IMG/VR virus record: IMGVR_UViG_3300002855_000209
Coordinates: 851-64,850 of that record
Length of the DNA stretch: 64,000 nt
Direction: 5' to 3' (one strand)
Origin: a virus
Shown: positions 14,046 through 59,272 of the stretch, one piece after another
Layout of the letters: each line of letters opens with the position of its first letter
Position numbering within the stretch: the stretch's first letter is position 1
Made by a program: the position numbers and the translations under genes
The notes under the pieces: model-generated
Database searches by the model: none
The model's input: the letters and a program-made list of their open reading frames with translations, nothing else
What the model was told of the DNA's origin: nothing

Positions 14046-14143
14046 TTAGAGAGCTTTCACACAAATTTCTACACTCACATTATTTTGATAGCATGAGCTG
14101 TACATCCTGATAATAGAAAGCACAGCAGTACTAAAGCTTTCAT
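14046..14143 (-). pseudogene. Micro-lipoprotein downstream of endolysin, 1-nt frameshift (copy 1)
   Basis: ATGA overlap with endolysin stop; MKALVLLCFLLSGCTAHAI then frameshift, shifted frame continues NNVSVEICVKAL*; span 98 nt; in-frame product stops at 14075 (22 aa). Confidence 0.65.
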
Positions 14144-14715
14144 AAAGAAACCCTATTAGCGATCCAACCGTAAAAGAATTGCTCTTGGCTTGAATTGCGT
14201 TCACAGATTTCAATATAGCGTTGACCTTGCATGATGTTAAGAACTCGAATTAATACCTTCTCTCCTTCTTTCCCACGTTTGGCCAGATAAGTTTTAAGTG
14301 CATTCAAAGTTGCTGGTCCATATATTCCATCTACTGATAAATCTGGCCAACCTGCCTTACCTTGATTATTAAGCAAATTTAAAGCGCGCTGTAAAAGTGG
14401 TTTCGCAAAGCCAGTACCGCAGTTCACACCAGTATCTAAAAGCTCTTCAGCTATAGCTGAAGAAATATAATTCACTTGGTCAAATCGCGGAACCGTCCAA
14501 TAGTTTTTGCGATAAATTGTTTTCGCCACATCCAGCGGCAAATCTTTCATATTGCCTTTGAATCCATTTGCTCGAGCAACTGCTTCAGTAATGCCGTACT
14601 TTGTTGCGCCGCCACGGTCCGCAGGGTTATTTACATAGCCGCCTTCACGTTTAATAAGTTCTTCAAGATATTGATCAATGTTCATTTCGGTTTCCTTTAG
14701 TCGTAAAAAAGCCAC
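14140..14715 (-). CDS. Endolysin, glycoside hydrolase family 108 with peptidoglycan-binding C-terminus
   Basis: REGGYVNNPADRGGATKYGIT catalytic motif; DGIYGPAT; FFYGW. Confidence 0.92.
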   Translation of the reverse strand: MAFLRLKETEMNIDQYLEELIKREGGYVNNPADRGGATKYGITEAVARANGFKGNMKDLPLDVAKTIYRKNYWTVPRFDQVNYISSAIAEELLDTGVNCGTGFAKPLLQRALNLLNNQGKAGWPDLSVDGIYGPATLNALKTYLAKRGKEGEKVLIRVLNIMQGQRYIEICERNSSQEQFFYGWIANRVSL

Positions 14716-14746: not shown

Positions 14747-14896
14747 TCATGCTTTTATAGAAGCAATTATTACATCCAACTTCCACATTAAGATTGGTAT
14801 GGAAAACAAAAGAATAAATGCAACTATTGTTTGCCATAAGCCGTACTTTTCAATAGATACTTTCATAAGCTCCACTATTGGTTTAAAATGCTCCAT
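14747..14896 (-). CDS. 49-aa single-TM peptide behind conserved leader (unit A)
   Basis: MEHFKPIVELMKVSIEKYGLWQTIVAFILLFSIPILMWKLDVIIASIKA; AAGGAG RBS; leader hairpin 14939-14972. Confidence 0.6.
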   Translation of the reverse strand: MEHFKPIVELMKVSIEKYGLWQTIVAFILLFSIPILMWKLDVIIASIKA

Positions 14897-16073: not shown

Positions 16074-16463
16074 TTAACTATTTTGAATATCATCTTTGGC
16101 TTTTTTAACTTCTTTAATTACTTCGACAATCGTCTTGCCTTCTTGTTTATCAATAAAGTTAAAGATCCAACGGACCAGTGCCCAACCAGGAATACCGCAT
16201 ATAAAGAAGAAGCCCCCTAAGGCAATCATTCCCCATACATCAGTAACCCATTCATGAAGTCCCCACTTCACGATAATGAATGAGCCACCAGCTAAACTAG
16301 ATACAACTGTACAAATGAGCCCTACAGCCCACTCTTGAGGTGAGCGTGGCATACGTGTCATCAATACAACTGCTGCAACTAAAGCGACCGCTAAAGTCAC
16401 CATGATTGCCGCACCGTAAAATTTTAAAAGTGCTGTTAGACCACTAGTGGAAACTGGTTCCAT
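16074..16463 (-). CDS. Putative holin
   Basis: Three TM segments and charged C-tail; position between tail genes and endolysin. Confidence 0.7.
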   Translation of the reverse strand: MEPVSTSGLTALLKFYGAAIMVTLAVALVAAVVLMTRMPRSPQEWAVGLICTVVSSLAGGSFIIVKWGLHEWVTDVWGMIALGGFFFICGIPGWALVRWIFNFIDKQEGKTIVEVIKEVKKAKDDIQNS

Positions 16464-41413: not shown

Positions 41414-41953
41414 CTAGATTAAAAGAGGTTGTATCTTGAGCTTTAACTCTTCAACTTTATGTTTTGCTTTAGGCTTATATTGCTTACCGACTAAACATAA
41501 GGTTCGACCTGCTTTAGATGCAATATCCGTCAAGTTCTCAAAGTCTAATACCGCTCGATTAAACTGATCTATTAAGCTAAAAGCAGATTGGCGTAATACT
41601 TTTTCACATTGGATAAAGTAACGACGTGCGATTCGCCCCTGATCATTGTTTTCCACCATTGATAGTTCTTTGGCAACATCTAAGGTTAAAAGATAATCCG
41701 TTTGTCTTGCCTTACCTTTTTGGCCATCTTTTCTTTGGGTTTCGGAAATTGCCGAAAGGCAAGCAAAGTCTTCATTTTCAATGAATCCATATGTTTTGAT
41801 TCGCTTCTTTATCCAATCAGCAAAACGATCTCCACTTTTCAGCCATTGATGTAAAGTACGGGCGTCAACACAAGGTTGAACCTCTCCACCAATTGTGGCA
41901 TCCACAACTGGAATTAAAGAATTGTGTAATGTATGGGGTTTATGCATATGCAA
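41414..41953 (-). CDS. AntA/AntB-family antirepressor
   Basis: VDARTLHQWLKSGDRFADWIKKRI..YGF.EN.DF; LTLDVAKELSMVE; RRYFI.CEK. Confidence 0.85.
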   Translation of the reverse strand: MHMHKPHTLHNSLIPVVDATIGGEVQPCVDARTLHQWLKSGDRFADWIKKRIKTYGFIENEDFACLSAISETQRKDGQKGKARQTDYLLTLDVAKELSMVENNDQGRIARRYFIQCEKVLRQSAFSLIDQFNRAVLDFENLTDIASKAGRTLCLVGKQYKPKAKHKVEELKLKIQPLLI

Positions 41954-42188
41954 GTCCTCTTATAAAGAGTTCCGCTACGCTACAAAATCAAGGAAATAAA
42001 ACGAAAAAATAAATTTTATTAGTTAGTTATAAATTAGGAAAAGAGAAACCTACCAAACGAAATGTTTAGTGGATTAAACCAAAGGTTTAATAAAGTAAAC
42101 AAAATGTTTACTTACATAAACCTCTAGACTAATATTTACTAACTAAAGTTAGTAAAGCATGCTTTACTAAAGTTAATTTTTAACCGTT

Positions 42189-42319
42189 TTACATGTTAAG
42201 TATCCTTAATTTGTGCTGGTCAGCAGCGGTTAGAAATTAAGGTCTCTCGTGATTGCAGTTACGAGAAACCACCTGAACCACAAAAAAGATCAAGTATTGC
42301 AGTACTTGGTCTTTTTTTT
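42189..42319 (-). promoter_or_regulatory. Tandem CTGCAA-loop hairpins, RBS and start-stop (ATG-TAA) element
   Basis: Hairpins 42282-42319 and 42241-42270 both with CTGCAA loops; AAGGA RBS then ATG TAA at 42194-42189. Confidence 0.45.
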
Positions 42320-42646
42320 ATCCACAAAGTTAACAAGCTGGTTAAAACAGTTTTCTATATGGAAGAGTTCTGGCTTTTACTTTATAAGAGTTGCACTTAA
42401 ATAACTAGATGTTTACTAAACAACTGCTGTATTTTGTAACATCCCAATTATTCATATATAAATAACTTTGTTATTAAATAAATTATAAAATTCATTATCT
42501 AACTTATAACTTACCTTGTATGAAACTAAAGTCATAATCTAAGTTATAAATTAATAACGCAGTTATTATTCATTTATGAATATTTGATTCTTTATAGAAA
42601 TATTTAATTACAAAATTACCGCCCTTACGAGCGGTAAAAATTAAAA

Positions 42647-43507
42647 TTAAGAATGAATTATTCCTGAGCCAGCACAGTCATTTAGGTCTTTAAATCCCAT
42701 CCCTCCTTTATGCCAGTCATGAGTTTTAGCTAATTCAAATATAGGCATGTAGACGTTTCGCCCTACCAACTGTCTTGCATCTTCAGCACCGAACTTAAAA
42801 TGGTCGTGGATGCCATGTCCCACAGATGGGCCAAGTTTTCGGATAGACTCACCAAACTCAGACCACCAGTGATTAAGCCAAAGCATGTGACGAGCTATAG
42901 AATCCACATGCTTAGACTCATATTGCTGTTTCTTATCTGCTTGGCTGTATAAAACTATTAAGTGATGCACATACTCAACGGCGACTGGAACCACATCGTA
43001 CGAAATTTCGTCGATGCTTTTAACATTGAACCGTTGATGAACTAATTTATATGCTTCGCTATAGTTCAAGTGCTTGGTTTTAGACACAAGCATATTTACT
43101 GCGCTGGTGAGTGGTTCACGTTCTGATTTATGGGTTTTGGCTAAGATTTCTTTTCGGTGAAAGTAGCAATCTTCAAGTTGCTCAAACACTTCCCATGCTT
43201 GATCCGTGTCTAGCATCTTGGCATGACGTGCAGCACCACGTTCTGTCCAGAGTGTTAATGCTCGTGCATTTGGACTGACTATCTTTAAGCTAGTTAGTGC
43301 TTTTTTAAAATTTCTTAATTCTTCACCAACTAATTTAAAAAAATGTTTACCTTCAATAAAACGTTCCAAATTTCTTATGTGGTTTTGTTGGATACGAATA
43401 TTTTCAGTTCCATATAAGTCTGCCAGCATTTCAGTAGTGACCACTGGAATAGCCTTATAGTTAATAACGGAAATTTCTTTATCATTTATATTTGCAATAG
43501 TATTCAT
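42647..43507 (-). CDS. ORF6N-domain antirepressor with P22 Ant-like C-terminus
   Basis: VVTTEMLADLYG, FIEGKHFFKL, LWTERGAARHAKMLDTDQAW ORF6N motifs. Confidence 0.85.
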   Translation of the reverse strand: MNTIANINDKEISVINYKAIPVVTTEMLADLYGTENIRIQQNHIRNLERFIEGKHFFKLVGEELRNFKKALTSLKIVSPNARALTLWTERGAARHAKMLDTDQAWEVFEQLEDCYFHRKEILAKTHKSEREPLTSAVNMLVSKTKHLNYSEAYKLVHQRFNVKSIDEISYDVVPVAVEYVHHLIVLYSQADKKQQYESKHVDSIARHMLWLNHWWSEFGESIRKLGPSVGHGIHDHFKFGAEDARQLVGRNVYMPIFELAKTHDWHKGGMGFKDLNDCAGSGIIHS

Positions 43508-44246: not shown

Positions 44247-46085
44247 CTATGTACCATCATATGCTGAAGTACTAATTTCACTAAATAAAGGTAATATTCG
44301 TTGTTCAATTTTTGCTTTCTTTAAGCGCTCAGATTGCGGTAATATTACAATATTTATATTTTCAACAACTTGATCAAGCCAATCTTTTTCTTTTGGATAA
44401 ATAGGGTCTTGCATTATGAGTTGATAACGTTTTCTTAATGCAGGCAAAATACTTGACAGTTCAGATTTAGATAGATTACATAACTCCTCTGAAAATTTTA
44501 GAGGTTCAATTTCTTTTAATACTGGAACGTCATAGAATAAATTATCACTATTATTTGTCAAATTTATTCTATGATAAAACAAGCTAGGATTACTTTTCAT
44601 TAAAGCTACTAACTCATTAGCTTTTTCCTTTAAATTACTGTTATATTTATTCTCATATATAGTATTTATTTCATTTAAAAAATCATTAAAGTAATCAATT
44701 CCTCTTGCGAAATAACTATATCCTGAAGAATGCTCTTTATACTCTATTTCTCTTAAGCTTTTTAAATTATCTACAACGGGAAAAACTTTATCAAATGATC
44801 GCAAAGCATGAGTCTTTAAGACCTCTAAATCAATTTCAATAATAGAAATATTATTAAAATATACTAACATACTAAAAGTATGTATAACATCAGCCCAATT
44901 TTCAAAATTTTCTTGTTCAAGAGCATACTTTGCTTGATCAATTAAGCTATCAAATTCAACCTCTGCCATATCAAAGTAATTCATTAGTTTAAACCAAATT
45001 GGTTTCTCAATTTCAGTTCTAAAGTATCCTTCATTAAGTTCCTTATTTATTAATTCTTTTTCAATGATTCTATTCAATAATATATTAGTCCAATTTTCTT
45101 TACTAAATACCATATCAGTTATAGATAAATTATATTTATTATAAAATTCACTGGCTTCTTTACCATTTATTCCTCTACAACTTGCTGCTATTTTTTTACT
45201 CAATTCGACGTCTTGAAAAAAACTATCATCAGGATTAAAATTTAAAATACCATTTTTAAAAACTCCTCTCTTATTTTCCAATGAAAGAATTAAATATATT
45301 TTAAAAGTTTTTAAAAATACATCATTATAAAATAAATCATTCCTAGTAAAAAAATCCTTACTATAAAAATGTTCAAAACTGTATATAGATTGTTTTAAGC
45401 TTCTTAAATTTTTATATCCTGCAAGTGTAAATAAATTCATAATTTCTTCTTTATTTGACTCAAGCATTGATCTTAGATGATCATCAGCAACTCCTTCTAT
45501 AATAGAATCAATAACAACTAAAGTATCTTCAGTGTATGTAAAAGTGGCATCTATTAGTTTTTCTTTAATTTTTAAATACGCACCTTCTTCGATTTGATTT
45601 TCATCAGCAATTACTACAGTTTTAATACCAATATTTTCGACAAAGTTATTTATGTGACCAAATAATTCTTCTGTATTAATTTTACATCGCTCCATATCAT
45701 CAATAAAAATAATAACAGAGTCCTTAATTCTATAAAATCTCTCAAAATCAAATCCTGTAAGATCTACTTTCATACCTTTTAACAAAGTCCCTATTCCCTT
45801 TGTTAAGAATTTACTAGTTTTACCATTAACAATAGGATATAACTCTGAGTATATTAAACCATCCAGTTGTTCAAAACCTTTAATCCCATTCAGGCTTATA
45901 TAAACAACTTTTTTATTCTCAAGTTTCAATTTTTCAATATATTGATTAACGAACCACGTTTTTCCACACCCCCAAGCTCCATTAATCATAATTGCATAAT
46001 TGAGTTTCTTCTTATCATCATTAAAGTAATAATCCAAATAATCTTCAATATGCTTGTTAGATTCTGATATATATTTAGTTATCAT
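44247..46085 (-). CDS. KAP-family P-loop NTPase
   Basis: YAIMINGAWGCGKT Walker A; IIFIDDMERC Walker B; LKIKEKLI; KNLRSLKQ. Confidence 0.85.
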   Translation of the reverse strand: MITKYISESNKHIEDYLDYYFNDDKKKLNYAIMINGAWGCGKTWFVNQYIEKLKLENKKVVYISLNGIKGFEQLDGLIYSELYPIVNGKTSKFLTKGIGTLLKGMKVDLTGFDFERFYRIKDSVIIFIDDMERCKINTEELFGHINNFVENIGIKTVVIADENQIEEGAYLKIKEKLIDATFTYTEDTLVVIDSIIEGVADDHLRSMLESNKEEIMNLFTLAGYKNLRSLKQSIYSFEHFYSKDFFTRNDLFYNDVFLKTFKIYLILSLENKRGVFKNGILNFNPDDSFFQDVELSKKIAASCRGINGKEASEFYNKYNLSITDMVFSKENWTNILLNRIIEKELINKELNEGYFRTEIEKPIWFKLMNYFDMAEVEFDSLIDQAKYALEQENFENWADVIHTFSMLVYFNNISIIEIDLEVLKTHALRSFDKVFPVVDNLKSLREIEYKEHSSGYSYFARGIDYFNDFLNEINTIYENKYNSNLKEKANELVALMKSNPSLFYHRINLTNNSDNLFYDVPVLKEIEPLKFSEELCNLSKSELSSILPALRKRYQLIMQDPIYPKEKDWLDQVVENINIVILPQSERLKKAKIEQRILPLFSEISTSAYDGT

Positions 46086-50555: not shown

Positions 50556-51203
50556 TCAATTGATTACGCAGTTTCCGCAGCATTTGGAAATATCTAGATT
50601 TGAAACAAACGGCGGATTCTTCGCAACCTCAACAAGACGTTTTACGCTCTTACTTGCTCCCCACCGTTTGGTTACACCAATAAATTCTTCAACATCATGA
50701 CCAGCTAAATAATGCTTAGGTAATCCAGTTGAGCTGCTAAAGATCATCTCACCGTCTTCATCACGTTCTACGCCTATATGATAAAGCTCATGCTCAAGCA
50801 AAGCGCAGAATTCACTATCGTTGGCTTTATCGCTAAAGGAAGCATCGATCGTAATCAGGTAAGTTGGTACAAATCCGAACCAGTCCCGCATCTGTTGTTC
50901 TTGTCTAGCTTTACGCCAGCCACCGACATTAAACATTACTTTCTCACACTGACCAAGAACCATGGCCTGTTTGCTTTTAAATGCTGACGAAGCCCACGCA
51001 AAAGCTAAGAATTCTTCATTATCATGAAGCAGCTCAGCAATATGGTCATGATCTGGATTGTGAAGTAGTCCACCAAGCGTTAGAAAGTTTGCTATAACCC
51101 ATTCCTTTAATTCTGGTGCAGGTTTTAAACGAATTGCTTCATCTTCTTCGGCTTTATCAATCAAGTCCTGTGGAGGAAATGGTCTGATCTGTTCCATTTT
51201 CAA
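50556..51203 (-). CDS. Phage putative metallopeptidase
   Basis: LLEHELYHIG HExxH motif; HDVEEF. Confidence 0.8.
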   Translation of the reverse strand: MKMEQIRPFPPQDLIDKAEEDEAIRLKPAPELKEWVIANFLTLGGLLHNPDHDHIAELLHDNEEFLAFAWASSAFKSKQAMVLGQCEKVMFNVGGWRKARQEQQMRDWFGFVPTYLITIDASFSDKANDSEFCALLEHELYHIGVERDEDGEMIFSSSTGLPKHYLAGHDVEEFIGVTKRWGASKSVKRLVEVAKNPPFVSNLDISKCCGNCVIN

Positions 51204-51594
51204 TTCTCGCTAATTCGCTTCTTATCCAGTTGATTGCATAACCTGATTCAATTTGATGAGGTTCAAGACGCTCAAATTTATAACCCTTATCTAAAGCTAG
51301 GTCATATTTTCCTAATGCATTAGCAATCTTTCTTCCGCCACGACCAACTGCCCAAGGACTTCCAGCAATTTCGATAAGAATATTCAACTTCACAATATAA
51401 AAATCGAACCGCCAATTTTTGGTTGAATCAAATTGAAATTTCCGTCGATAACCAATTAGATGCTCTTCTAGTTCTTGAAATAATGTTTCTTCAGCCTCTA
51501 AGTACTTCTGTGTTGCTTTAGGAAGTGGTCTACTCTTGGGTTTGGTTTTAGGTTCTTTTTTTCTTGTAAGCCAAAAATAATTTTTATCGTCCAT
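51157..51594 (-). CDS. PD-(D/E)XK/DUF559-like endonuclease-domain protein
   Basis: WRFDFYI...ILIEIAG. Confidence 0.6.
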   Translation of the reverse strand: MDDKNYFWLTRKKEPKTKPKSRPLPKATQKYLEAEETLFQELEEHLIGYRRKFQFDSTKNWRFDFYIVKLNILIEIAGSPWAVGRGGRKIANALGKYDLALDKGYKFERLEPHQIESGYAINWIRSELARIENGTDQTISSTGLD

Positions 51595-52511: not shown

Positions 52512-52540
52512 AAAAAGCCCATCTTTCGATGAGCTCTTTT
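52512..52540 (-). terminator. Terminator after tandem peptide genes
   Basis: Imperfect hairpin GAGCTCATC-GAAA-GATGGGCTTTTT on minus strand. Confidence 0.55.
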
Positions 52541-52545
52541 AAAGA

Positions 52546-52650
52546 TTATCTTGGTTTCTTGATTAATTTTTCTGGCATTGAATCGCCAACAATCTTAATG
52601 GGTGGTGTTGGAGCTGGTGGCGGTACTGGCTTAGATGCACTTATACCCAT
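52546..52650 (-). CDS. 34-aa Pro-rich peptide 2
   Basis: MGISASKPVPPPAPTPPIKIVGDSMPEKLIKKPR; GGAG RBS; 1 nt after peptide 1 stop. Confidence 0.6.
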   Translation of the reverse strand: MGISASKPVPPPAPTPPIKIVGDSMPEKLIKKPR

Positions 52651-52651
52651 A

Positions 52652-52753
52652 TTATTTATGCTCCAGTTTACTTTTATCACTTCTTTCTTCAATAACTATT
52701 GGTGGTCTATCAACCTCTGGAGGAACAGGCTTATTAAATCGAATCTTTTCCAT
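52652..52753 (-). CDS. 33-aa Pro-rich peptide 1
   Basis: MEKIRFNKPVPPEVDRPPIVIEERSDKSKLEHK; 5 nt after stop of TM gene. Confidence 0.6.
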   Translation of the reverse strand: MEKIRFNKPVPPEVDRPPIVIEERSDKSKLEHK

Positions 52754-52758
52754 ATAAC

Positions 52759-53283
52759 TTAAATGATCAAAATATCAACTATAATCAATAATACAGTTAA
52801 CACAAACATTAATCCACAGAATTTTATCTCCATAAAAGCCTTATTCAAATAATTAACTTTTATAGTATTTCTATCTTCATATGTTTTAATAACCTCAGCC
52901 ATATCGATGGAAAGATAATAATAGATAGTTGGTAGCTCATTCTGTGTAAAGTAATTTACCATATCCTTATTATTTTCTAGTTTCCCCACCTTACTAACTT
53001 CTAGAACATGAAATAAATTTCTAGCTATACTGGATAATGACAAAAAAACAAAAATCATCAAAACGACAATTAAGTAAAATATAAAAGATTTTTTTTCAAC
53101 ATCAAACAAATACTGTTTTGAAAATATACTCATAGCCGCAATAATTATTGATGTAAATGTTAGATATTTAGCAGCTTTATCTTCATGTTTTGCATGTAAT
53201 GCCTTTACACTTTCAAGCCCTTTCAATTGAAACTCATAAAGTGTTTTATAAACTTCTTTATCAAATTGATCTTCGGCAGTCAT
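52759..53283 (-). CDS. 3-TM membrane protein (Pycsar-effector-like topology)
   Basis: N-terminal helix, TM hairpin, soluble loop, C-terminal TM; likely ATG at 53283 with GGAG RBS. Confidence 0.65.
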   Translation of the reverse strand: MTAEDQFDKEVYKTLYEFQLKGLESVKALHAKHEDKAAKYLTFTSIIIAAMSIFSKQYLFDVEKKSFIFYLIVVLMIFVFLSLSSIARNLFHVLEVSKVGKLENNKDMVNYFTQNELPTIYYYLSIDMAEVIKTYEDRNTIKVNYLNKAFMEIKFCGLMFVLTVLLIIVDILII

Positions 53284-53297
53284 TAAAAACTCCAAAT

Positions 53298-53320
53298 AAA
53301 AACCCCGCATTGCGAGGTTT
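53298..53320 (-). terminator. tR'-like terminator
   Basis: AAACCTCGC-AAT-GCGGGGTTTTT about 30 nt downstream of the late promoter. Confidence 0.65.
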
Positions 53321-53347
53321 ATCCAATGGTTTACTTACACTTCGACC

Positions 53348-53387
53348 ACTATAACGCAAAAATAGCATTTACCCTGTACAGGGTCAA
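53348..53387 (-). promoter_or_regulatory. Late promoter pR'-like with palindromic Q-binding candidate and -10-like pause element
   Basis: TTGACC-17 nt-TATTTT; palindrome ACCCTGTACAGGGT (53371-53384) in spacer; TATAGT near +1. Confidence 0.6.
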
Positions 53388-53416
53388 GTTCTGAAGCCCT
53401 AAACGATTCAATTATC

Positions 53417-54325
53417 TCAAACACCTAAGATTTTTTTAACTACAAGAGCATCATCTAAATATCCAACAATATAATGTGGTTGGAAATATTGTGTTTTTGC
53501 CCTTAAATTCTGAATTTCTGGTTTAACATTATAGGGAGGATTCGTTAACAAATAAGCCGAAACAAAGTCATCCGTGTCATAAAAGTTAAACCAATCTCCT
53601 TTTAATGAAGAGGGTTTAGTACGATCTTTGAAATAATCATAAAATACAGGGATGCCCAAAGGAGAGCCTAAAGTTACTAACCGAGAAATCTTATAAGAGG
53701 AATTTAAATGCTGTAGAGCATCTAGACAAACAGCACTACCAAGAGAATGCCCAACCAATACAATTTCTTTCTTAGAATCCTCTTTTATCTTACTTAATAA
53801 TCTTTCCCTCACTTTGGATCTATATTGCTCATTCTCAAGAAATAGATTTGCCTCTTTAGCAAATATCTTAAGCACCCATGTATGAAGCTTTTGAAATCTA
53901 CTCGTAATTTTAATTAATGCCTTCGCACCTTTATCTATAAAAGAATATGGAGTTAAAGTACTTTTTAAATTAACAGGAATTCCTTCAATCGGTAATGTTC
54001 CCATCTGATCAGTAGTATCTCCCTCCATCGAATCAGCAATATTGATTAAAATATCCTGCTCATCTAATGACAAATCATTAAAGTTTTTTTCAAAAGCATG
54101 AAATCCACTGGTCTGTAAATCAAACAAGACTTTATTAGAAGTTGGTGTATTTAAATAATCCTTTACTAGATCTCCATAATAAATAAACTCAAATTCTGTT
54201 GTCGCTGGAACATTCGGTATATGTGCCTGAAATACTCCCTCTAAGAAGGCCTCTATCCATATTTTTTTCAATGTTTCAGGATCCTTATCAGTCTGGTTGA
54301 TCCCGTGTACCATTATTATTTTCAT
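53417..54325 (-). CDS. Alpha/beta hydrolase (lipase-like)
   Basis: IMVHGI; GHSLG nucleophile elbow; VTLGSPL; N.YD.DD.V; C-terminal His. Confidence 0.8.
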   Translation of the reverse strand: MKIIMVHGINQTDKDPETLKKIWIEAFLEGVFQAHIPNVPATTEFEFIYYGDLVKDYLNTPTSNKVLFDLQTSGFHAFEKNFNDLSLDEQDILINIADSMEGDTTDQMGTLPIEGIPVNLKSTLTPYSFIDKGAKALIKITSRFQKLHTWVLKIFAKEANLFLENEQYRSKVRERLLSKIKEDSKKEIVLVGHSLGSAVCLDALQHLNSSYKISRLVTLGSPLGIPVFYDYFKDRTKPSSLKGDWFNFYDTDDFVSAYLLTNPPYNVKPEIQNLRAKTQYFQPHYIVGYLDDALVVKKILGV

Positions 54326-54439
54326 GACTTTATCCTTTTAATTATATTGAAATTTTATTATATTCTTTTAAATATTAAGTGCAAACATAAGCCAGTTCAA
54401 AGCATAATATTTATATTGAACTCATCTAAAATATTTTGC

Positions 54440-54850
54440 ATGAAATCTCTAGAAGTCGTTGCCGCAGTCATCCAACACCAGGATAAAATCTTATGTGCCC
54501 TTAAAGGTGAGCATAAGTATCCCTATCTATCGAATAAGTATGAATTCCCGGGCGGCAAAGTCGAAGCTGAAGAAACACTCGAGCAAGCGCTCATTCGAGA
54601 AATTAAAGAAGAGCTCAATCTTGATATTGAAGTAACAGAGTATCTATTAACTGTAGAGCACGCCTACCCCAACTTTAATATCGAGCTGGCCACTTTTATG
54701 TGCGTGACTAAGACTATCGAAGAATTGGCTTTAAGTGAGCACCAGGATGTACAATGGTGCACAATCGATGAATTAGATCAGCTCGACTGGGCTGCTGCTG
54801 ATATCCCCATCGTGAAATACTTACTTGATAATAAGACTGCAGCATGTTGA
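54440..54850 (+). CDS. NUDIX hydrolase (MutT/NudG-like dNTP pyrophosphohydrolase)
   Basis: EFPGGKVEAEETLEQALIREIKEEL Nudix box; VEHAYP; LDWAAADIP; ATG at 54440. Confidence 0.9.
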   Translation: MKSLEVVAAVIQHQDKILCALKGEHKYPYLSNKYEFPGGKVEAEETLEQALIREIKEELNLDIEVTEYLLTVEHAYPNFNIELATFMCVTKTIEELALSEHQDVQWCTIDELDQLDWAAADIPIVKYLLDNKTAAC

Positions 54851-55677
54851 AAGATTTTAGACAATTAAAACCAGGTACCATTTTAGATAATGATGGATTA
54901 CGTGATTACTTCCTTTGCTCACCTCAGGGCGGAATGCGTCGGTCTCACAAGACCAACACCCTCATCATCGTTTCAAACCATGTAGAGTCCGTCTATGAAG
55001 ATCGATGGATTGGCGATGAGCTACACTACACCGGCATGGGCCAGCTCGGTGACCAGGGATTAACAAGTCAAAATAGAACATTAGCTGAAAGTCATACTAA
55101 CGGCGTTTCAGTTCATCTTTTTGAAGTATTTGTCGATAAAGAATATATCTATCAAGGTCCAGTTACTCTCGTAGCAGATCCATATCAAAAAATTCAACCT
55201 GATGCTAATAAACAAGATCGGTTAGTCTGGATATTCCCCGTTAAATTATCTGATTCCAATACGGCGATTAGTGTAGAGACCATAGAGCGCACTAGTCAGA
55301 AAAAGCAGCGTAAGTATAAGAAGAAATCGATTGAGCAGTTGATGGCAGATGCTCATGCTACAGCACAAACGCAAGTCAGCTACCGTAATACCAAAACAAA
55401 ATACTTTATTCGTTCCGATGCTATTGCCCAGCTTGCTAAGCGTTTAGCTAATGGCATTTGTCAGCTCTGTGAACAGCCTGCCCCTTTTAAAGACAAAAGT
55501 GGTGAGCCTTACCTGGAAACTCACCATATTGAATGGTTGGCACATGGTGGACCAGATACCGCTGAAAATACGGTAGCACTTTGCCCGAATTGCCATAAGA
55601 AAATGCATGTTGTGAATGCTGAGGCAGATCGGAAAAAGCTTTTATTAAATACAAGAAATTTACAAACACATTCTTAA
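54844..55677 (+). CDS. SRA-like domain + HNH endonuclease (McrA-like, modification-dependent)
   Basis: QGGMR, YEDRW, HYTGMGQLGDQ, QNRTL SRA-like motifs; CQLC...LETHHIEWL..GG.D...N.VALCPNCH HNH. Confidence 0.8.
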   Translation: MLKDFRQLKPGTILDNDGLRDYFLCSPQGGMRRSHKTNTLIIVSNHVESVYEDRWIGDELHYTGMGQLGDQGLTSQNRTLAESHTNGVSVHLFEVFVDKEYIYQGPVTLVADPYQKIQPDANKQDRLVWIFPVKLSDSNTAISVETIERTSQKKQRKYKKKSIEQLMADAHATAQTQVSYRNTKTKYFIRSDAIAQLAKRLANGICQLCEQPAPFKDKSGEPYLETHHIEWLAHGGPDTAENTVALCPNCHKKMHVVNAEADRKKLLLNTRNLQTHS

Positions 55678-55714
55678 AACATACTCATTTCATAGAAAAT
55701 TTAATGGATAAATA

Positions 55715-56395
55715 ATGGAACAGTTTTTAAAACGTATATCTTTTTTTCTTATCTACTTACCCGCATTAGTATATGCCTGTCAATTTGCCTATTATGCAGG
55801 ATTAGGCGAGCCTTTAAATATTCACGTTACTTCTTTGGGTTTAAATTACCCAGAAGTAGTGTTAATGGGATATTTATATATTTCTCTACCAGTTCTTGAA
55901 TCTATTTTTTGGTTGGCAATATCAATAACTTTCATCTTATGCCTTGTGTTTGTGACTTTCAGTATTCGCTGGTTACAAAAGCATAAAGGTACTGAAATAG
56001 AATATCGTGAATATATTGAAAAAAGTTTCAGAAGAGTAAGAATCTGTTTATATAAACAAAAAAAGGATTTAATAAAAGCAATTAATTCTTTCATTGGAGT
56101 TTTAGGCTTATATTTTGTCATATTTGTTTTTACTTTTTTATTAATTTTATTTTACTACAAATTAGGGACAAAAGAGATTGAAAATAAAGTTCAAGATATT
56201 TTAAATTCACAGACTTGTAATACTTCAGATGGATATATAACTTCCAACAATATAAAAGTACGAGTCAAAACTATTTTATGCGGTTACAACAAATGCTATG
56301 GAATTTCTTTAGATAATAAAGAAGCTATAATTTATCCACCAGAACAATCTGCACAACCGATTGATGAATCAAAGTTTAAAAATAAAGTACCATAA
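55715..56395 (+). CDS. Multi-TM membrane protein
   Basis: About 4 hydrophobic segments and a small C-terminal Cys-containing domain. Confidence 0.6.
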   Translation: MEQFLKRISFFLIYLPALVYACQFAYYAGLGEPLNIHVTSLGLNYPEVVLMGYLYISLPVLESIFWLAISITFILCLVFVTFSIRWLQKHKGTEIEYREYIEKSFRRVRICLYKQKKDLIKAINSFIGVLGLYFVIFVFTFLLILFYYKLGTKEIENKVQDILNSQTCNTSDGYITSNNIKVRVKTILCGYNKCYGISLDNKEAIIYPPEQSAQPIDESKFKNKVP

Positions 56396-56432
56396 GGTAC
56401 TTTATTTTATCTATATAGTCCTTATTTTTAAA

Positions 56433-57224
56433 CTAAATATCAGTTAATATTCCTTGTAAGCCAGCACTTATCAAAATACCATATACAATAATTACCAGAA
56501 TAAAAATTACTATACCAGGAGTATTAATCTTATTATCAGCAAAAATATTCAAACTATATATACTTGAGAAAACATATGCACCAATTAAACTGCAATTAAA
56601 AATCATTATTAACCCCATTTGTATTGTAGCTGAAATGCTTAAATATATAACTTCATGTTGCTTGCATAAAAAATATGCATAGTAACTACACAAAAATATG
56701 AGTAATACTCCGCTAAAAAACAGCATATAGTTTTTTAGTTTTTTATCGTATATATACAAAATTAAGAAAACTACTAACAAATAACCCGAAAATAGGCTAT
56801 AATCGAAAAATTCCACATATTTATATTTTTTTAAAATAATTTTAGCAAAAATAATTGTCGTAATATATAATGCCAATAAAGTTGATTGACTTAAAATAAA
56901 AGAAAACACTTCTCTTTTTAAATCAAAACGCTTTTTTTCATCATGTATCTTATTGATATTTAATCTAGATACATCATCTTGAAGACTGATTAATTCTTCA
57001 GAATTTATTTCATAAATATTTCCATCTTTTTTCCAGAGTCTTTCATCAAATTTTTTTAAAATATCGCTTGAATTACTTTGACTTATATCTATACATGTCA
57101 CAAGTCTAGCTCTTAACTCACTAGCTTTACTTTTATGACAACATTTTCCATCTAATAAAGACACCTCATACAACCAAGTTTTTATGGCATTCTTTTCATT
57201 GTTCTGGTTGAATTGTTCTTGCAT
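56433..57224 (-). CDS. Multi-TM membrane protein with soluble N-terminus
   Basis: About 5 C-terminal TM segments; AT-rich. Confidence 0.6.
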   Translation of the reverse strand: MQEQFNQNNEKNAIKTWLYEVSLLDGKCCHKSKASELRARLVTCIDISQSNSSDILKKFDERLWKKDGNIYEINSEELISLQDDVSRLNINKIHDEKKRFDLKREVFSFILSQSTLLALYITTIIFAKIILKKYKYVEFFDYSLFSGYLLVVFLILYIYDKKLKNYMLFFSGVLLIFLCSYYAYFLCKQHEVIYLSISATIQMGLIMIFNCSLIGAYVFSSIYSLNIFADNKINTPGIVIFILVIIVYGILISAGLQGILTDI

Positions 57225-57424: not shown

Positions 57425-57943
57425 CTAATACCCAATAAACCCATATCGACAATGCAACACCGCTAACCCACACTTAACATCGCTACGTGCATCTGATTGC
57501 GAGCGATCTTCTCTCACCATTTCAGACCATGACTGCCCGCGAAAGTAACGGTCAATAATCGCCCCCATCCATTCATCCATGACTTCACTCTGCCCCATTA
57601 AATCTAAAACTAAGCGCTGTACTGCACGTGCTTCATTGTCATCAATCTGGCACTGGGTTTTAGATTTGGTTTTACGAAACGGATCTGATTCGCTCACGAA
57701 GTAATTGGCAATAATTTCCCGTTGTTTCTTCTTACCTAACCGCTTTAAACGGCGCTGCTTTTCAGCCTGAACCATTGCTGAGGCAATCGGATTACTGTAA
57801 GCACCTGAAGGAATGCCCGTAAAACTCTTTTGATCTAACCATGCACCGAACTGATATAACCAGCCCTCTAGATCGAATCGTGTCCACTCCACTGAGTGCA
57901 TAACATGCTTCTTATCGATCATTAGTGTCATTCGTTCCCCCAA
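57425..57943 (-). CDS. Late antitermination protein Q
   Basis: LEGWLYQFGAW, IDDNEARAVQRL, VKCGLAVL; last early gene; cognate pR'-like element present. Confidence 0.7.
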   Translation of the reverse strand: MGERMTLMIDKKHVMHSVEWTRFDLEGWLYQFGAWLDQKSFTGIPSGAYSNPIASAMVQAEKQRRLKRLGKKKQREIIANYFVSESDPFRKTKSKTQCQIDDNEARAVQRLVLDLMGQSEVMDEWMGAIIDRYFRGQSWSEMVREDRSQSDARSDVKCGLAVLHCRYGFIGY

Positions 57944-58334
57944 TCATTTTCTCTATCTGCTGAACCGCTAAACCTGACTTCACTTGCTCTGTGCTGAACC
58001 GTAAAACTGTAAAACCCATCATTGCCGCCGAGTTATATTTCTCCATATCCCCCATATAACCTTTGCCCCTTGTGTGACGTCCACCACCTGCCATCCAGAT
58101 ACCGCCCTCTACCTCAACCAGAATCCTTGTTCCCGTAATCACAAAATCAGCTCTCCATTTGCGTTTCGGGTGGAATTTATATTCCTGCTCAAAACTGATC
58201 TTGCATGCTCTTAAGTGTGTTGCCAGTACGGTCTCGCCTTCACTTGGCTGTCTAGTACCTTGCTTTGCTGAACAGCGTTTCTTTGTCTTCACTGGAAATA
58301 ATTCACGGTATTCAGCAAGGCTCATTGATGTCAT
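57912..58334 (-). CDS. DUF559/RusA-like endonuclease
   Basis: EYKFHPKRKWRADF, VEVEGG, DMEKYN; ATGA overlap with replication gene. Confidence 0.75.
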   Translation of the reverse strand: MTSMSLAEYRELFPVKTKKRCSAKQGTRQPSEGETVLATHLRACKISFEQEYKFHPKRKWRADFVITGTRILVEVEGGIWMAGGGRHTRGKGYMGDMEKYNSAAMMGFTVLRFSTEQVKSGLAVQQIEKMIGGTNDTNDR

Positions 58335-59272
58335 GCTGCCCCCTGCAATGTGCCTTTGAACCCAACTTGCTTGAGATACGGTTCCCATTGTTTAGCCTGA
58401 ACTGGATCGCTAAGTTTTACGGCGATACGTGCTGCGAGTTGATCGTAGCTTTCCCCTGCAGCTGCAAACTGACTTGCGAACTCAGGATGTTGTGAGAGTT
58501 TTTGAGCGAAGGTGTGAACCTGTTTATCGCTCAACTGGTGCGGTGCGCCCGGCGAGCACCGAACTGATGACCCTGAATTTCGGAAACCTGTCTGTTCACG
58601 AGCTTGGTATTTGCCACTTGCGTTGATTAACCAATCTGCAAAGTGGTAATGCTTGAGTTCATCACAAAGATTCTTATCGGCGTTGTAGAGTTCAAATGCT
58701 CGAAGCTCCCGATCAAACCAAGTTGCGTTTTTGATCTGCTCGTAAGTTTCCTGATCAGTTGCCAAACGAATTTCTTCACCAAGTTTTTTCAAACTCAACC
58801 ATGTTTTTTTATTTTTAGATTCATCTGATAGATTCCCTGATAGGTTCTGTGTCCCAATATTGGGACTGGTCTCGGTACCGTTTTTGGGACTGGTTGCGGT
58901 CCCATTATTGGTACTAGTACCGTTTTTGGAACCAGTACCGAAATTGGAACTAGTTCCGTTATTGGTACTAGTCCCCTTTTTGGGACTGGTTAAGTCATTT
59001 TCTTCACGGCCCATTACACCAATTAACTGGTAAACCTTCACACCATTTCCTGTGATTTCACCTGTAAATCTAATTAATGAAATTGCTTCAAGCTCATCTA
59101 ATACTTTGATCACTGTTTTACGGTTAAGGACAGTGTCTTTAACCATTCGTTTAATGCTTGGGTAGCACTTGTGAGATTCTCCCGCTCTATCAGCTAAGGC
59201 CAATAAAACGAGTCTTTGACTTGAGGTTTTAACCTCTGCTTTGAAAGCCCAAATGGTTGCGTCCAGACTCAT
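58331..59272 (-). CDS. Replication initiator (HTH N-terminus, lambda O-like)
   Basis: RLVLLALADRA..CYPSI; central xNGT repeats encoded by iterons. Confidence 0.85.
   Translation of the reverse strand: MSLDATIWAFKAEVKTSSQRLVLLALADRAGESHKCYPSIKRMVKDTVLNRKTVIKVLDELEAISLIRFTGEITGNGVKVYQLIGVMGREENDLTSPKKGTSTNNGTSSNFGTGSKNGTSTNNGTATSPKNGTETSPNIGTQNLSGNLSDESKNKKTWLSLKKLGEEIRLATDQETYEQIKNATWFDRELRAFELYNADKNLCDELKHYHFADWLINASGKYQAREQTGFRNSGSSVRCSPGAPHQLSDKQVHTFAQKLSQHPEFASQFAAAGESYDQLAARIAVKLSDPVQAKQWEPYLKQVGFKGTLQGAA
58852..58990. repeat. Iteron-like repeats (putative phage origin) inside initiator gene
   Basis: TTGGGACTGGT x3, ATTGGTACTAGT x2, GTACCGTTTTTGG x2. Confidence 0.65.

Follow-up and report, generated by a model that had tools for sequence, protein, structure and literature searches.

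A conserved prophage unit of a PycTM/SLATT-like membrane protein and two proline-rich micro-proteins apparently derived from the tail of its own family

On the minus strand of a provirus we found a compact unit in which the gene of a three-helix membrane protein is closely followed by two genes for proline-rich micro-proteins, pep1 and pep2. Comparison with relatives indicates that these micro-proteins are detached and duplicated copies of the C-terminal tail of the membrane protein's own family. The window, i.e. the whole stretch of 64,000 nucleotides which was analysed, is part of a 70.9-kb provirus record (IMGVR_UViG_3300002855_000209), and from the names of homologues and from related genomes the host of the prophage is judged to be Acinetobacter. 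The data presented below support the view that the membrane gene, pep1 and pep2 form one conserved, translationally coupled unit which is bounded by a terminator. By analogy with known systems we consider the chances even that this operon combines a PycTM/SLATT-like effector with two free copies of its family's own tail in a peptide-gated device used in phage conflict.

The unit and its two micro-genes

The membrane gene occupies positions 52759-53283 (minus strand, as all elements of the unit) and encodes a three-helix inner-membrane protein of 174 amino acids which matches phrog_23273 across its full length (E 3e-82), thereby fixing the true start of the gene. Five nucleotides past its TAA stop codon begins pep1 (52652-52753; 33 amino acids, proline-rich, core KPVPPEVDRPPIVIEERS), which is devoid of a Shine-Dalgarno sequence and probably translated by termination-reinitiation. 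One nucleotide past the stop codon of pep1 follows pep2 (52546-52650; 34 amino acids, proline-rich and basic, core KPVPPPAPTPPIKIVGDS), with a GGAG located 11 nt ahead of its ATG. The unit ends with an intrinsic terminator (52512-52539) composed of a 12-pair stem, a GAAA loop and a T-run. A hairpin with a T-run closes every related unit, the terminator sequence being different each time. An earlier note, prepared from the DNA sequence alone, had described this architecture of a gene with three transmembrane segments and ORFs of 33 and 34 codons, including both gaps, the GGAG and the terminator, and each of these elements was recovered on the minus strand at the coordinates given here.

When compared by BLAST with a phage record collection, which may lack close records, neither the region nor the membrane protein produced a match, and Rfam returned chance-level matches only for the region. 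Contigs from RNA libraries of four studies contain an approximately 95% relative of exactly 52537-53311, the similarity ending at 52537 by the terminator. Since these contigs, which carry no strand information and may contain DNA, show neither strand nor transcription, we did not count them as evidence of expression.

Both micro-ORFs accompany the membrane gene over a wide range of divergence. They are retained in nine related viral contigs whose membrane protein is 88-95% identical to that of the window, and also at loci where this identity amounts to 72, 60, 58, 55, 52 and 50%. In most loci of the 50-72% range the start of pep2 and the stop of pep1 overlap as ATGA, an arrangement that is maintained in diverged loci. 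Relatives at 25-33% identity harbour one to four proline-rich ORFs which lie downstream of the membrane gene or overlap it. Altogether, peptide ORFs or tails are found in one to four copies next to every family member with readable DNA, i.e. in about 20 lineages ranging from 95% to about 25% identity. A family member is present in eight of 151 Acinetobacter species genomes; all eight contain the peptides, one of them four in tandem, and pep1 is kept by all homologues of the Acinetobacter clade.

The substitution pattern points in the same direction. At near-saturated synonymous divergence pN/pS amounts to 0.35 for pep1 and 0.40 for pep2, and in the alignments of both peptides third codon positions show about twice the differences; by these measures pep1 and pep2 are under purifying selection. 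Profile-profile comparison of the two peptide families by hhalign (E 1.4e-9, probability 96%) identifies them as paralogues. The motif KPVPP-x4-PPIxI, which the earlier note had noticed in both peptides, is hence shared to a degree beyond chance, and both ORFs are retained beside every homologue examined. In the homologues P0024 to P0027 pep1 is even fused in frame to the membrane protein after helix 3, while pep2 remains a free ORF (L020). It is extremely improbable that the small ORFs are untranslated and owe their conservation to an RNA element or to chance open frames in a 3' UTR rich in proline codons: pep1 does lack a Shine-Dalgarno sequence and proline-rich regions tend to be open in several frames, but the codon-position bias, the low pN/pS values at near-saturated synonymous divergence, the retention of the ATGA overlaps in diverged loci, the in-frame fusion of pep1, the persistence of the protein motif despite DNA divergence across about 20 lineages and the failure of Rfam to find a match all speak against it. 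Judged by these comparisons, both micro-ORFs are conserved coding genes.

According to the earlier note, both peptides had been missed by the ORF track in favour of an ORF on the opposite strand. Such an antisense ORF of 77 codons does exist on the plus strand (52529-52762); it is open in close relatives only and broken in diverged loci and thus, as far as the alignments indicate, not conserved. The peptides, however, have not been missed universally, as their exact sequences are already annotated as "hypothetical protein" in other assemblies. The exact pep1 sequence is on record on 50 contigs.

Two loci with unusual arrangements may be mentioned here. In the Acinetobacter genome G133 (L041, 778-1163) four tandem proline-rich micro-ORFs of 29, 27, 22 and 28 amino acids are situated behind the family member. 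All of them contain KPEYVPPPPP and the last one ends like pep2 of the window (IKIGDS...KK), linking the peptide types. In Acinetobacter gerneri (L026, 2968-3661) a frameshift splits the membrane gene into parts of 59 and 101 amino acids, and both peptide ORFs are intact.

Relation of the micro-proteins to the tails of the family

A profile search yielded 275 cluster representatives of the family, which fall into two length classes. In the longer class (about 225-260 amino acids) helix 3 is followed by a low-complexity linker, a motif of the type KPNPN-h-x-PP-x-YD-x-h-TEGYDPSK and a lysine-rich end, and some members carry this tail motif twice. The Acinetobacter peptides share the layout of these tails, with L028, L029, L034, L041, L042, L045 and P0042 as intermediates. 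Aligned by hhalign with the distant "TEGYDP" tails the Acinetobacter peptides adopt the expected register at an E of 0.015-0.02, which is not significant; the presumed homology to these distant tails, statistically not significant, rests on position, register and intermediates.

In 52 of the 58 fused sequences an in-frame Met is present at the start of the tail. In both of the two fused distant loci with readable DNA this Met is preceded, at a distance of 6-7 nt, by AAGGAG or AAAGGAG, and one of the two possesses, in addition, a further free ORF with two copies of the motif. It is this conserved in-frame Met at the start of the tail, together with its Shine-Dalgarno sequence and the natural fusion of pep1, which leads us to regard the peptides as detached tails and not as foreign ligands. 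The simplest reading of the compared loci would be that the family as a whole produces a free tail peptide, the upstream frame stopping before the tail, overlapping it or running through it. The earlier note had envisaged an effector combined with a peptide-ligand module. The membrane protein is indeed effector-like by profile and fold (see below), but the peptides appear to be the family's own tail rather than a separate ligand.

Across the alignments of peptides and tails the conserved positions are mostly prolines, which are followed by a conserved hydrophobic-x-hydrophobic stretch and then by acidic or Ser residues. In L031 (1168-1344), P0083 and P0200 the tail motif occurs twice within one peptide or tail, besides the fused copy; as these doubled motifs suggest, its multiplicity arises both from gene duplication and from internal repeats.

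Two other identities of the peptides were considered and rejected. An assignment as spanin (o-spanin, i.e. a proline-rich lipoprotein of the Rz1 type) is not compatible with the absence of cysteine, lipobox and hydrophobic N-terminus, and a role of the peptide ORFs as leader peptide or attenuator does not agree with their location after the gene and before the terminator.

Late control and genomic settings

Upstream of the membrane gene lies a leader of the late-promoter type (53284-53400, minus strand, 117 nt). It contains a promoter-like site TTGACC-17-TATTTT (53387-53359), a 12-bp perfect palindrome CCCTGTACAGGG (53383-53372) between the promoter hexamers, a terminator hairpin (53320-53300) and a GGAG (53293-53290), all of them on the minus strand, the hairpin being placed 7 nt before the GGAG and 17 nt before the ATG. 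In the window there is no room for a separate promoter between this hairpin and the start codon of the membrane gene. Conservation of the terminator hairpin includes one compensatory pair, and this hairpin is the only element in the consensus fold of the leader; a further hairpin upstream, seen by eye, was not recovered.

In relatives the conserved leader directly follows a Q-like gene. The window encodes a Q-like antitermination protein too (57425-57943, minus strand; phrog_79 "anti-termination protein Q-like", E 2.3e-30). With the products of the Q-like genes directly upstream of the leader in relatives it shares 28-34% identity, and it is presumed to regulate the leader. Comparison of the region upstream of the membrane gene between the window and the loci L002, L008, L009, L021 and L025 reveals that the promoter palindrome exists in four versions (CCCTGTACAGGG, CTGTAAATACAG, GTGTGCGCAC and TTGTGTACACAA) which differ in sequence but are all palindromic and which track four Q allele groups, making it a candidate Q-binding element of allele-specific type. 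The pattern of a Q-dependent late unit is thus found, consisting of a Q gene, a promoter with a Q-tracking element, a terminator and late genes, with antitermination being putative. The location of the unit in relatives, directly behind Q gene, promoter and terminator hairpin, supports late, Q-dependent expression. What the earlier note had claimed in this respect, namely that the unit is the first behind tR' and depends on Q, is hence backed by the leader and by the adjacency of Q in relatives, but in the window itself Q is 4 kb away from the leader with a defence island in between.

The prophage genes are arranged, in the direction of the minus strand, in the order cro-like gene, replication initiator, Q-like gene and a gene for a 263-aa unknown protein; then come three plus-strand genes (membrane protein, SRA-HNH nuclease, NUDIX), an alpha/beta hydrolase gene, the leader and the unit, and then small ORFs, terminase and portal. 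The 4-kb island (53417-57224) encodes the alpha/beta hydrolase (Lipase_3-like), the NUDIX protein (PADLOC PDC-S07, E 9e-48), the SRA-HNH type IV restriction nuclease, a 226-aa membrane protein and the 263-aa unknown protein, and three of its five genes are oriented against the late operon. We considered the alpha/beta hydrolase (53417-54325) as a possible part of the unit, in the sense of a defence pair of hydrolase plus three-transmembrane protein, and rejected this assignment as the gene is absent upstream of every other copy; PADLOC gave one chance-level match only for the hydrolase (CARF_m5, E 0.0028).

Elsewhere the unit is located between tail genes (L017, L019), behind replication genes or, in the chromosome, next to a transposase, and in these other settings it is bracketed by unrelated terminators. 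Distant fused members have a serine recombinase and defence-type ATPases as neighbours. Wherever the unit was seen in a phage, it points in the same direction as the late genes. It is cargo that passes between the late operons of phages and other mobile elements. It resembles the late cargo of lambdoid phages, such as the stx genes of Shiga-toxin phages, which are late-operon cargo behind pR'-tR', and terminator-bounded morons like HK97 gp15, in that its place is behind a promoter and terminator under Q control, or else between tail genes, and that it possesses its own terminator, whereas the content of the cargo is unrelated.

Other parts of the window are worth recording in this context. The gene of a 612-aa P-loop NTPase of the KAP family (44247-46085, minus strand; PF07693, E 7e-18) is flanked by head-morphogenesis and anti-repressor genes in that part of the window where the GC content is lowest (26%), and looks like another cargo or defence-type insertion. 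Two paralogous endonuclease-like genes of the phrog_503/DUF559 type (51157-51594 and 57912-58388, minus strand), one of which overlaps the start of Q while the other lies just before the terminase region, may be homing-endonuclease-like elements. Finally, two anti-repressor (Ant-like) genes (41414-43507, minus strand) lie among the structural genes, on the downstream side of the head genes.

Kinship of the membrane protein and possible functions

The AF2 model of the membrane protein (pLDDT 78.6) comprises helices at residues 9-61, 67-94, 106-114 and 117-173. Three long hydrophobic helices are discernible, two of them very long and each ending in a membrane segment, with the hairpin partner between them. 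This membrane helical hairpin with flanking long helices is a feature of the SLATT type. Foldseek matches the model to AFDB clusters named SLATT or DUF4231 (probability 1.0, TM 0.63-0.82), which we take as moderate evidence for a SLATT-type fold since the helical fold is a simple one. One homologue bears the UniRef name "SMODS and SLOG-associating 2TM effector", and in the nearest ESM Atlas cluster 13% of the members contain PF18967 PycTM. The PADLOC PycTM model PDLC02365 covers positions 8-161 of 165 in a weak match (E 1.5e-4, 20.2 bits), and 16 of 69 relatives match PycTM models, the best with 9.8e-8. Searches of these 69 family members against Pfam at E up to 1 revealed no SLATT family, the sub-threshold matches being DUF2207_C and 8xMP only (the meaning of the latter was not found in the literature searched), and the Pfam copy used gave no PycTM match. 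Neither Foldseek against solved structures nor a profile search of PDB sequences returned anything meaningful. No PycC cyclase or cyclase domain was found among the neighbours in the window or the called genes of related loci, and no SMODS, SLOG, RT or TIR partner gene in any locus read. Taken together, the weak PycTM match, the SLATT-type fold and the lack of a signalling enzyme nearby suggest a remote stand-alone relative of PycTM/SLATT which, by sequence and model, cannot be shown to belong to either family.

With PycTM (Pfam PF18967; PADLOC PDLC02363-5) the protein shares its size (about 165-175 amino acids), a weak but near full-length profile match and the all-helical membrane fold class. 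It differs from PycTM in that the cyclase partner is absent and a third, C-terminal membrane helix is present; furthermore, the family of the window protein is always provided with a proline-rich tail or micro-protein, which the PycTM profiles (160-165 positions) lack. The likeness to SLATT 2TM effectors, such as those of CBASS 2TM or the SLATT partner of DRT10/UG17, consists in the Foldseek fold matches and the one UniRef name. In contrast to them, the window protein has no Pfam SLATT match and no partner enzyme and stands alone apart from its peptides. In the literature on SLATT or PycTM with peptides, antitoxins or prophages we found no description of such a pairing. New are the lambdoid Acinetobacter unit behind tR', the natural fusion of pep1, the conserved nested start and the co-variation of Q and palindrome.

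PycTM disrupts the inner membrane once a small ligand switches it on, and in Panoptes the effector OptE is kept inactive by a bound ligand that is supplied all the time, a cyclic dinucleotide from the mCpol enzyme (PMC13712596). As nucleotides switch PycTM on and hold OptE off, we propose, by analogy, that the present effector is gated by peptide. The free peptide would be the working form, for "fused" genes too keep the internal start. Its docking site might be on the cytoplasmic side of the effector, where it could extend the conserved loop after helix 2 by a beta-strand, and once docked it would gate the effector. The most likely direction would be that bound peptides quiet the effector and that their loss or displacement leads to oligomerisation and membrane permeabilisation. 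Such a device could serve in phage-phage or phage-host conflict, either by abortive infection or by exclusion, and it would be expressed strongly in the late phase of lytic growth and, in the lysogen, at no more than a leaky level. The likeness to OptE is limited to the proposed logic of an effector which is held off by a constantly supplied partner and released upon its loss, the direction assumed here being a guess; compared by this logic, the partner is a cyclic dinucleotide from mCpol in one case and a gene-encoded micro-protein in the other.

Structure prediction provides a hint of such docking. For a fused relative, AF2 predicts just two strands, one formed by the loop after helix 2 (106-108) and the other by the hydrophobic core of the tail motif (225-227). 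The pLDDT of the membrane domain is above 90 and that of the tail about 50, for which reason strand docking is only a hint. Prediction of a complex of the membrane protein with pep1 and pep2 gave a score of 0.01 for pep2 as partner, which speaks neither for nor against binding. A problem for the gating explanation arises from the predicted topology. Both the positive-inside rule and the model predict a periplasmic C-terminus behind helix 3, which would place a fused tail on the side opposite to the free cytoplasmic peptide and the docking loop.

Strong late expression of a lethal pore-former would harm the phage unless it were tightly gated, and it would fit a role in lysis as well. In that case the membrane protein would be a holin- or pinholin-like lysis accessory, with the peptides as antiholin-type timers, by which the lysis timing of the carrier phage is tuned. 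The membrane gene is, like gene S of lambda, the first gene behind a Q-dependent terminator, it is co-oriented with the late genes in every phage context seen, Foldseek also finds clusters named "Holin-X, holin superfamily III" (TM 0.70-0.75), and pairs of a holin with a small regulator exist (P1 LydA/LydB, T4 T with RI/RIII). Yet, this phage possesses its own lysis module 38 kb away, with an endolysin (14140-14715) and small membrane ORFs (14747-14896 and 16074-16463), the unit never adjoins an endolysin in the loci read, and distant members reside in non-phage elements beside recombinases and defence-type ATPases. The holin families of PHROGs and Pfam gave no match for the membrane protein. 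We regard a lysis role as distinctly unlikely.

The predicted topology would suit a non-lethal exclusion at the envelope, in which the tail motif is periplasmic and the membrane protein with its proline-rich, lysine-tipped tails blocks the entry of superinfecting phage DNA. Fused tails follow helix 3, whose C-terminal end is predicted to be periplasmic, and on the same predicted side lies the short conserved loop joining helices 1 and 2, whose sequence KQYLFD does not vary within the clade. In L017 and L019 the unit is flanked by tail genes, and membrane morons of tail operons which block DNA entry are known, HK97 gp15 being one of them. The free peptides, however, have no signal peptide, hydrophobic stretch or lipobox, the conserved internal start of fused genes points to a cytoplasmic free form, and within the family it is the cytoplasmic helices adjoining helices 1 and 3 that are conserved most strongly. 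On balance, exclusion at the envelope seems improbable to us.

Di- and tri-proline runs could, moreover, render synthesis of the peptides dependent on EF-P and the ribosome, so that their output would report the health of translation to the effector. Stalling at poly-proline and its relief by EF-P are established, the most conserved positions of peptides and tails are mostly prolines, and the copy number varies from one to four. However, the hydrophobic-x-hydrophobic stretch and the acidic or Ser residues are conserved as well, as for a binding strand, and nothing links the family to EF-P. In addition, the terminator directly follows the peptides, leaving no downstream gene which stalling could regulate. 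Such a sensor of translation stress is, in our opinion, very doubtful.

Returning to peptide gating of a PycTM-like effector, this proposal can be extended to a sensing function, which we put forward as an unlikely possibility. By analogy, the gene-encoded micro-protein would replace the cyclic-nucleotide ligand, and the free tail peptide, whose cytoplasmic synthesis would begin at an in-frame start that is separate, overlapping or nested, would keep the effector closed. As the peptide is tiny, proline-rich and probably short-lived, its supply would report host translation, and a shutdown of translation, or binding of the peptide by a phage, would open the pore.

For annotation, the unit illustrates that real micro-genes of about 30 codons can be lost while antisense ORFs are called instead, and that such genes can hide as nested reading frames inside "fused" genes. 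For experiments, the position of the unit behind a presumably Q-controlled terminator would offer a defined on-switch. Few killing devices of bacterial immunity are as poorly understood as membrane effectors of the SLATT/PycTM type, including the manner in which they are restrained and activated. The 275 cluster representatives constitute a large stand-alone branch which is always accompanied by a tiny proline-rich protein. The latter occurs in one to four copies and may be free, overlapping, nested or fused. Such a proline-rich tail or micro-protein would be a purely protein-encoded control handle that is accessible to simple genetics. If the sensing function were true, the unit would represent a one-operon translation-sensing switch for abortive infection, carried as phage cargo in many bacterial groups.
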